Assembly: GCF_006345805.1 (NCBI RefSeq)
Contig: NW_021834694.1
Coordinates: 1-45,793, forward strand
From: Octopus sinensis
Taxonomy: Eukaryota
Direction of reading: 5' to 3'
DNA length: 45,793 bases
Within the stretch, counting starts at the first letter, position 1. The number at the start of each line of letters is the position of its first letter. The notes below the pieces were generated by a model that made no database searches, had not been told where the DNA came from, and was given only the letters and a program-made list of their open reading frames with translations. The position numbers and the translations under genes are program-made. Of the stretch, positions 12,481 through 14,885 are shown in pieces.

Positions 12481-12822
12481 CTATCTATCTATCTATCTAT
12501 CTATCTATCTATGTATCTATCTATCTATCTATCTATCTATCTATCTATCTATCTATCTATCTATCTATCTATCTATCTATCTATCTATCTACCTACCTAC
12601 ATATCTACCTACCTACCTATCTATCTATCTATCTATCTATCTATCTATCTATCTATCTATCTATCTATCTATCTATCTATCTATCTATCTATCTATCTAT
12701 CTATCTATCTATCTATCTATCTATCTACCTACCTATCTATCTATCTATCTATCTATCTATCTATCTATCTATCTATCTATCTATCTATCTATCTATCTAT
12801 CTATCTATCTATCTATCTATCT
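12481..12822. repeat. (ATCT)n microsatellite
   Basis: Directly visible. Confidence 0.97.
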
Positions 12823-13810
12823 CTCAAGCAACTCTGCCGTCCTGGGTCGACCTTGAGTGACTTCAACACAACCAAAGCATTCTATAGGGGTTTAGTGGAG
12901 GGGAGGTACGACGACGAGCTCGGGGCGAACCTGGACGTCGACGAGGAGTACCTGACCCGCCTGTTCAGGACGACTTTCGGGCCAGGGCCCATGGACAACT
13001 TCCAGAGATCCCTGGCCTGGCAGTGCTACCGAGAAGCGCTACACGTTCGGGATAAGCTCTACAGACACGGCTCGAGAAACACGGGGCCGACCTGCCCGAG
13101 ATGCGGTCAGAGCGACGAAACCGTTCTGCACGCACTCGTTCAGTGTCCAACAATTTCCGACCTGTGGGCTTATGTCAAACAACTGCTGTCACGTGTGGGA
13201 CGAGTCGGTTTATCAGCTGAGTCTATCGTCAATATTGTCACGCCTCCTTCCTTCAAACGGGAAGGAAGAGCTATTTTCATCATCCTTGTGGCTATGGCGA
13301 AAGAATGTATCTGGTGGACGCGTCTGAAAGGATTGGAGACAAACACTTTCCTCTCTGGTCAATCTCTCATCAACTTCTTCAAGTACCACTTGAAAAGGAA
13401 AGTGAGAGTAGAGAGGCAAGTTTTGTCTAGCGAATGTTTTAAAAAAAGATGGGTGAATGTAGCAAGAATGGCACGTATGAATGACGAAGCCACCTTGAGC
13501 ATAATCCTATGAACCCAGAAATTGAAAACAGAGATTTGGTCTTTTCCGTAGGCTTTTCTTTCCACGGGTAAACCTCACCTGTCCTCCCCTTTACACTTCA
13601 TATTGACATTTCTGTGATAACGATCCCTATTGATCAATTTCCCCCCCCCCTTTTTTAACCCCCCCTTTTTTGTCCTCTTTCTTTCCTTTTACGATCCCTT
13701 TTGATCGAAACTCCCCCCTTTCCTTTTTTTTTTTTTAAACCTTCAAAAGAAAAGCTCTACCTTGTAATTTGTTCTATCTGTGTGCAGCCCTGTGTGGCTA
13801 ATAAAGAAAC
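12823..13810 (+). mobile_element. 5'-truncated L1/Tx1-like non-LTR retrotransposon (ORF2 C-terminus with zf-RVT-like knuckle plus 3' UTR)
   Basis: Stop-free frame 12823-13512 containing WQCYREALHVRDKL...CPRCGQSDETVLHALVQCP..W. Pyrimidine-rich 3' UTR and AATAAA at 13800-13805, after which atctatctacct repeats resume. Confidence 0.85.
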
Positions 13811-14885
13811 ATATCTATCTACCTACCTACCTACCTACCGGCCTGTCTGTTTGTCTATCTACTTTTGGTATCTACATCTAAATCTCTTTCGCACGTTGTC
13901 TCTCACTCATCCGCTCACTCATTCACTCTCTTTCTCTTTATATGTGTGAGTGAATATGATTACCTATGTATGTGTGTGTTTCTGTATATACATACATGCA
14001 TAAATACATACATACATACATACATACATACACGCATATATACTTACGTGCATACATGCATACACACACACACGTTTATGCATGTATATAAAAAGGCCAT
14101 AGCTGTCATACTGGAGTGAGGGTTAGTGTGACATAGTAGCATGTAAGCATACTTTATATGCACACATAAATAATAATAATAATGATGATGATGATATATA
14201 TACGGGTATATACATGTGTATTTATGAATATGTGTGCATGTACAGATATATACATGTACAGTAATATACAGAGAGAGAGAGAGATGGGGGAAGAGAGAGG
14301 GGAAAAGATCTGCTTTCATATCTCTTCGCTTCCTTCTTCCTCTCTATCATCGCCTTCTTTTCTTTCTCTCTCTATGTATCAGTCTTCACCGCCAAACTCT
14401 CCTTGTCAGCTCTGCAATACATATACGATATTATAGACACGATGTACAATGCACTGTGTGAGATACGTCGAAGTTTGACAGAAATTGCACTAATTTTACT
14501 GTCGATAAGCATTTAATGTCACATAGCCAATCGTCCCGCCTTCTCGCCGTTGGTTAATGGTTGTTATGCGGAAAAAAAATGAAGTAGAAGACAGCAGGTA
14601 GATTATGAGAGGGAAGGGAACGATGTGGAAGTGGAAAAGGGGGGAGAGAGAGGAGGTGATAGATCGGAAGGAAAGAAAAGAAAATGGAGGATATGAAAAT
14701 GAAGCGTGAAGAGTTAAGGAAAAAAAAAATAAATAGAAGACCAAGAAAAAGAATAAAAGATGTTAGAACAAGAATGTAGAAGAGAGAAAAAGACAAAAGA
14801 AGACTAATCCGAAAGAAGACTAATCCGAAAGTTAAAAGACAGAAAGACGGACAAATATGGAAGAAAATTACAGGAGAGAGATTCA

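Follow-up and report, generated by a model that had tools for sequence, protein, structure and literature searches.

Several groups of non-LTR retrotransposons are known to choose microsatellites as insertion targets. The teleost members of the Tx1 clade include Kibi, targeting (TC)n, and Koshi, targeting (TTC)n (PMC4494074; PMC3812793), while crocodilian Tx1 families target (TTCC)n or (TTTC)n (PMC4494074). Additional targets are given in Fig. 3 of PMC4494074. Insertion into (ACAY)n, (AC)n and (TAA)n was described for Waldo, Mino and Dong, respectively (PMC3812793), and into (TG)n for Togen (PMC4640811). RTE elements were reported to create microsatellites from their own 3' ends (PMC2887409; PMC6007223). 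A family was regarded as target-specific when one sequence type was present in >20% of its flanks (PMC4494074), and the choice of microsatellites by APE-type retrotransposons was called not well understood (PMC3812793). Eighty L1-Tx1 families, 13 of them recently active, were found in Octopus vulgaris (PMC13282606); the opening third of its text gives no target preference, and the words ATCT, GATA and microsatellite had no matches in one of its supplements. A LINE specific for GATA/ATCT was not found in searches of the open-access literature.

The family described here, from Octopus sinensis, is a genuine and young group of LINEs that targets GATA repeats on one strand and in one register. It was recognised in a 45,793-nt contig, NW_021834694.1 (hereafter the window), which carries at 12821-13812 the 3' part (about 1 kb) of a 6.2-kb two-ORF LINE in the form of a recent 5'-truncated copy (Table 1). 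A preliminary description of the window had placed a retrotransposon inside an (ATCT)n array, and the array in front of the copy together with ATCTATCT right behind it bears this out. The flush 5' truncation stands as well; the array itself (period 4, 86.8 copies, 96% matches according to TRF) begins 5 bp further left than had been stated. The element starts at 12821-12823, its first two letters also extending the array, and the stretch right after the array has 51% GC. The absence of poly(A) and the direct return to the repeat at the 3' end were likewise described correctly, the terminal letters of the element being GAAACAT rather than GAAAC. AATAAA is located at 13800-13805, and the 3' UTR is short by about 67 bp (an internal A-tract) after 13538.

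Table 1. Arrays and family copies located in the window
Feature	Position	Strand	Details
5'-side (ATCT)n array	12476..12822	+	ATGT and ACCT variant units; last 21-22 units perfect
ORF2 end, 5'-truncated	12821..13512	+	230 codons free of stops, then TGA; CCHC motif of zf-RVT
3' UTR, pyrimidine-rich	13513..13812	+	ends AATAAAGAAACAT, no poly(A)
Repeat remainder, 3' side	13813..13839	+	ATCTATCT(ACCT)4ACC
Second (ATCT)n array	45532..45619 (bounds approximate)	+	same strand as first
Second family copy	45620..45793	+	truncated inside ORF1, flush with array, cut by contig end

The roughly 230 stop-free codons noticed earlier correspond to the frame at 12820-13509, which is followed by TGA at 13510-13512, was open in none of 20,000 base shuffles, and encodes an ORF2 end matching zf-RVT of Pfam (E 8e-8). 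The contrast drawn with the other coding relics of transposable elements agrees with a light check: no other long non-repeat ORF was found in the window, and none of four candidate ORFs had a Pfam match. The nearest copies (L017, L028, L029) are 99.1% identical to the window copy over 691 bp while the remaining full-length copies are mostly 92-94% identical to it, which places the window copy in the youngest layer of the family and makes its proposed youth credible. The assembly contains no second haplotype of its flank, and no empty allele was seen. Any target-site duplication of the window copy is at most 8 bp, because the ACCT units do not adjoin the 5' junction, and is thus shorter than the 11-17 bp of other copies.

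The earlier survey of the window had picked up this first copy and overlooked the second one at the contig end, which is 93% identical to the reference copy L077. To the left of the first copy lie a piece of another dispersed repeat, SINE-like by eye (11530-11740), and a dispersed-repeat piece with many genome matches at 65-86% (11911-12130). The window further includes a 538-bp (TTA)n array (16672-17209), a repeat type reported as a target of Dong elements, and two short ORFs resembling by eye a mariner transposase end (39018-39341, plus strand) and a reverse transcriptase relic (40030-40551, minus strand). The plus-strand frames of the latter two regions had no Pfam match.

In the 2.7-Gb genome, 5,099 exact matches to a 24-mer from the 3' end were counted (a control, 0), a minimum figure given that sister families which have diverged carry other 3' ends; 40 of the 1,820 candidates from the 3'-end search were scored. 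Natural full-length copies measure about 6.2 kb, and one variant of the head occurs 87 times. ORF1 (698 aa, uninterrupted in one natural copy) has one CX2CX4HX4C knuckle and a below-cut-off Pfam match to zf-CCHC (E 0.004); neither Transposase_22 nor RRM was detected in it by Pfam. Its look-alikes in the protein atlas (0.91-0.93) bear zf-CCHC and in some cases RRM or ZCCHC3 RNA-binding domains. ORF2 (1,145 aa, uninterrupted in another natural copy, L219) combines Exo_endo_phos (APE), RVT_1 and zf-RVT; it possesses YADD and, for APE, the motifs N, E, Y, D-x-N, D and H.

The best relative of ORF2 among solved structures is L1 ORF2p (E 6e-43, residues 6-725), followed by R2 in the reverse transcriptase only (E 3e-18); L1 and R2 types were the only ones among 15 hits. 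Domain layout and similarity to L1 ORF2p thus point to the L1 group of APE-type LINEs. A midpoint-rooted FastTree phylogeny was made of 115 reverse transcriptases, after removal of fragments that contained stops or had fewer than about 270 aligned residues. In it the family groups with an Argonauta protein, and unnamed proteins at 52-55% identity form the sister group of the two. Their clade (support 0.95, short branch) includes elements adjoining U2, 5S and U1 RNA genes, and more distant L1-like sequences fall outside it, in a tree built without named Tx1 or vertebrate L1 elements. 5S is the target of Mutsu, a Tx1 element. U2 is a known kind of Tx1 target (PMC4494074). Membership in the Tx1 clade is likely, judging from the domain layout and this proxy tree. 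ORF1 may be of type I, a kind defined by RRM plus a CCHC knuckle in contrast to Transposase_22, and such ORF1s were called consistent with Tx1 (PMC5203782); a supposed link between ZCCHC3 and the Tx1 ORF1 was not found in passages of PMC9004415 and plays no part here.

The nearest named homolog comes from Argonauta hians (68%), the closest outside relatives being 52-76% identical. No clade label could be taken from the protein-cluster names, and a homolog search with the endonuclease only returned one unnamed match. The first metagenome scan found no relatives; the second found distant ones only (24-45% identity), with no ATCT arrays among the 53 of 80 that were inspected. Some of these distant metagenome relatives lie beside U2 snRNA (L237, L238, L243, L249, L250), 5S rRNA (L253, L257) and U1 snRNA (L271) genes; U1 snRNA may be a little-described target. 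Eleven near-identical relatives of ORF2 from the limpet Patella caerulea belong to the protein cluster of P0105, and their closely spaced locus tags (SNE40_003393-003415) suggest a tandem, site-specific array.

Genome-wide, 4,253 of the 5,099 exact 3' ends run directly into ATATCT, i.e., 83% of them share one register; the remaining 846 may be a mix of decay and off-target events. ATATCT also starts 88 of 104 3' junctions, and all 30 best-match loci, the window's own among them, continue into ATCT repeats. As a 3' repeat alone could be a tail, the 5' side provides the test. For this, we used the first 84 of 100 listed ends on contig C1 in positional order, a sample that represents one chromosome arm and keeps in one tandem triplet and one 5' assembly gap. 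ATCTATCT was present within 60 nt of the junction at the 5' side of 64 copies and at the 3' side of 69, on both sides in 55 and on either in 78; six copies lacked it on either side, which counts against the explanation we favour below. Its reverse strand was seen at none of the 5' and two of the 3' junctions. The flanks of other copies, proposed in the preliminary description as the place to look, are therefore not random.

Background windows further out contained ATCTATCT in 43 of 3,776 cases (1.1%) and its reverse strand in 18, so the repeat is enriched about 70-fold at the junctions. Among truncated copies, 54 of 74 have the repeat at the 5' junction, which marks it as a target in addition to any role as a tail. 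Full-length heads abut it in 77 of 79 cases (reverse strand, 0) and in 30 of 30 in an overlapping set. Random insertion followed by survival in repeat-rich DNA, or misassembly of microsatellites, could also be imagined: microsatellites abound in the genome (TRF gives 201 rows for the window), and many copies carry homopolymer frameshifts which look like long-read errors. The 70-fold enrichment, the strand bias of 64 to 0, the common register, the duplications crossing junctions (see below) and the rarity of AT, AC, TTA and other abundant repeats at the junctions largely refute such an origin, and we consider it extremely improbable. Behind one short copy, L122 (C1, 31,613,453), the array reads (AGAT)n, the opposite strand, which may reflect an inversion.

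Arrays could instead be made mostly by the elements themselves, as 3' tails and, on the 5' side, through read-through RNA, template jumps to the tail of another RNA or slippage, with insertion at otherwise random sites. The 3' end of another copy lies within 400 nt at 45 of 140 array-to-element junctions, as such a process would have it; this stacking could come from repeated insertion into tails, template jumps or copying of read-through RNA. No such end was found within 400 nt of 48 of 74 array-to-truncation junctions, so most 5' arrays are not just the tails of neighbours. Perfect runs were longer at the 5' than at the 3' junction (41 vs. 22 of 66, P 8e-4) in truncated copies of at least 300 bp, which is one of five subsets, with no difference in the 84 ordered copies; a general expansion of 5' arrays was not seen in total array length. 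In the 55 copies with arrays on both sides, array lengths (medians 102 and 155 bp) did not differ (P 0.64), as expected for insertion into pre-existing arrays. The flank arrays also grade into locus-specific GTCT, ATCC and ACCT shoulders and higher-order repeats, which argues against their manufacture by the element.

Truncations that abut arrays occur all along the element, ORF1 and UTR included, which speaks against element-made arrays as well. Eleven of 74 truncation junctions (one allelic pair included) fall within a 62-bp stretch (5132-5193 in the reference copy L077) that lies some 1.05-1.1 kb before the 3' end and includes the break of the window copy; two junctions were found in the 430 bp upstream of this cluster and three in the 150 bp downstream. 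An RNA hairpin as its cause was rejected, local folding ranking only 39 of 350 windows. Flush contact was seen at 56 of 67 array-to-truncation junctions, a set likely to contain a few low-complexity false matches and unmerged allelic pairs. Microhomology of at least 2 nt is present at 17 of these 56 (12.7% in simulations, P 4e-4), and 18 share no base.

Target-site duplications are unreadable in pure repeat. An edge-anchored search of 168 copies detected them in nine, compared with 0.76 in permutations (maximum 3). Of these nine, two belong to the tandem triplet and another two are ambiguous; the five clean ones measure 11, 11, 12, 13 and 17 bp, and in four of them ATAT or TATCT directly adjoins the end of the element. 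At L210 (C5, near 71.64 Mb), a 12-bp duplication encloses both the 116-bp 5' array and the 255-bp 3' array, and at L110 the duplication encloses 26 nt of repeat-like head, hence the repeats at these two loci likely arrived with the RNA; at L210, an older inserted array later struck by the element would look identical. Both loci fit the making of arrays by the element, yet duplications outside repeats were found in just these two of 168 copies while most copies have two-sided arrays, and the insertions at L160 and L172 hit the final unit of a longer array on the left. We find it very unlikely that most arrays are products of the element.

Longer duplications were also considered. At L091, L119, L120, L144 and L151, the 5' side reproduces the compound pattern of the 3' array for 50-200 bp. 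This recurrence may reflect a long duplication, a pre-existing higher-order repeat, merging of haplotypes or recombination with an empty allele. Target-site duplications of 80-200 bp at these five loci were rejected, as the excess over permutations is weak or mixed: 4 vs. 0.27 exact matches at one threshold, 3 vs. 0.7 by local alignment (one of the three being a tandem artefact) and 24 vs. 9 with a noisy filter. A 32-bp duplication on C3 was set aside since it could equally predate the insertion, and a supposed 3' transduction at L073 is in fact a local 166-bp tandem repeat. The 5' flank of L142 (G000 C1 near 44.99 Mb) is a 2.3-kb tandem array with a 16-bp unit; the last 12-13 bp of the unit are duplicated at the 3' junction, and a single unit is present on the 3' side.

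The explanation we favour, and regard as probable, is that a young high-copy LINE, likely of the Tx1 clade, enters (ATCT)n on one strand and in one register by nicking of (AGAT)n combined with pairing of its RNA end. Elements of this class are known to insert by target-primed reverse transcription. Transcripts without a poly(A) tail would read through into the flanking (AUCU)n. The APE domain would nick the (AGAT)n strand, probably at the T/A step, and the freed 3' end would pair with the AU(CU) end of the RNA and prime target-primed reverse transcription. The other strand would be cut about 11-17 bp further on and joined to the cDNA, often via 0-2 shared bases; for the window copy, joining would have followed after about 1 kb of cDNA. 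Each insertion would thereby keep or add repeats, leading to stacking in tails and sometimes to arrays planted at new sites. Counting against this explanation, besides the six copies mentioned, are the 846 ends not followed by ATATCT, the enclosing duplications at L110 and L210, the short limit on the duplication of the window copy, the 18 flush junctions with no base in common and the longer perfect 5' runs of one subset.

The fixed register does not locate the nick, because pairing alone would fix it too. Targeting could accordingly be a matter of pairing only: a loose endonuclease makes nicks, and an (AUCU)n RNA tail anneals wherever these fall in GATA arrays, as was proposed for RTE elements. 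The insertions outside or at the edge of arrays bear on this, since L110 and L138 occupy non-array sites starting with ATAT, which matches the element's end, and in these two as well as in L160 and L172 the site agrees with the RNA end over 3-6 bases; L110 and L210 make it likely that repeats are part of the RNA, and microsatellite-like 3' RNA ends were proposed to set the sites of cleavage or priming (PMC6007223). Against it, the endonuclease is held to be the main target-setter in APE-type site-specific elements (PMC4494074; PMC3812793), and the weight we put on the endonuclease comes from this view in the literature. We judge targeting by pairing only to be unlikely. Diverged sister-family ends or heads are flush with (ATCT)n at L159 and L227 (5' flanks), L219 (3' flank), L068 and L098, suggesting that several families of one lineage share the habit. 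The sister families have different 3' ends and an unchanged target, which fits the endonuclease and the pairing views alike.

Like Kibi and Koshi as described, the octopus family is an APE-type LINE residing within a pyrimidine-rich microsatellite, but its target is (ATCT)n rather than (TC)n or (TTC)n. It shares a tetranucleotide target with the crocodilian Tx1 families and differs from their published description in the repeat unit and in a much higher specificity (76% at the 5' and 82% at the 3' side, n = 84). The shares of flanks with the repeat, both in this sample (64/84 and 69/84) and at the 3' ends genome-wide (4,253/5,099), exceed the 20% at which a family is called target-specific. 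Waldo, Mino, Dong and Togen, as far as their accounts go, are similar in being microsatellite-specific non-LTR retrotransposons with different repeat units. These four belong to other clades (R1, R4, NeSL-like). The features in common with the RTE generators, as these are reported, are the lack of poly(A), repeat units at the RNA end and the seeding of new arrays; unlike RTE, with its single ORF and repeats at the 3' side only, the octopus family has two ORFs and arrays at its 5' truncation points too. Relatives of the GATA-targeting family may be present among the L1-Tx1 families of O. vulgaris.

Set against the open literature, GATA would be a new target for an already known habit of picking microsatellites. 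There is limited evidence that the family also seeds arrays. It is conceivable, though rather unlikely, that it builds its own habitat: (AUCU)n at both RNA ends would guide insertion into GATA arrays and also plant new ones at off-target sites, where later copies would land. If this were true, a sizeable share of the GATA microsatellites of the genome would be products of such a loop, as would the head-to-tail stacks seen at roughly one junction in three, and an APE-type element could be given a new target by exchanging the short tail of its RNA.

Overall, with more than 5,000 copies, natural uninterrupted ORFs and a junction specificity of 76-83%, the family constitutes a large natural data set with which endonuclease preference and RNA-DNA pairing can be told apart directly. 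It also calls for caution with GATA markers in octopods, as these may have multi-copy flanks, and it may account for part of the GATA repeat load in octopod genomes.
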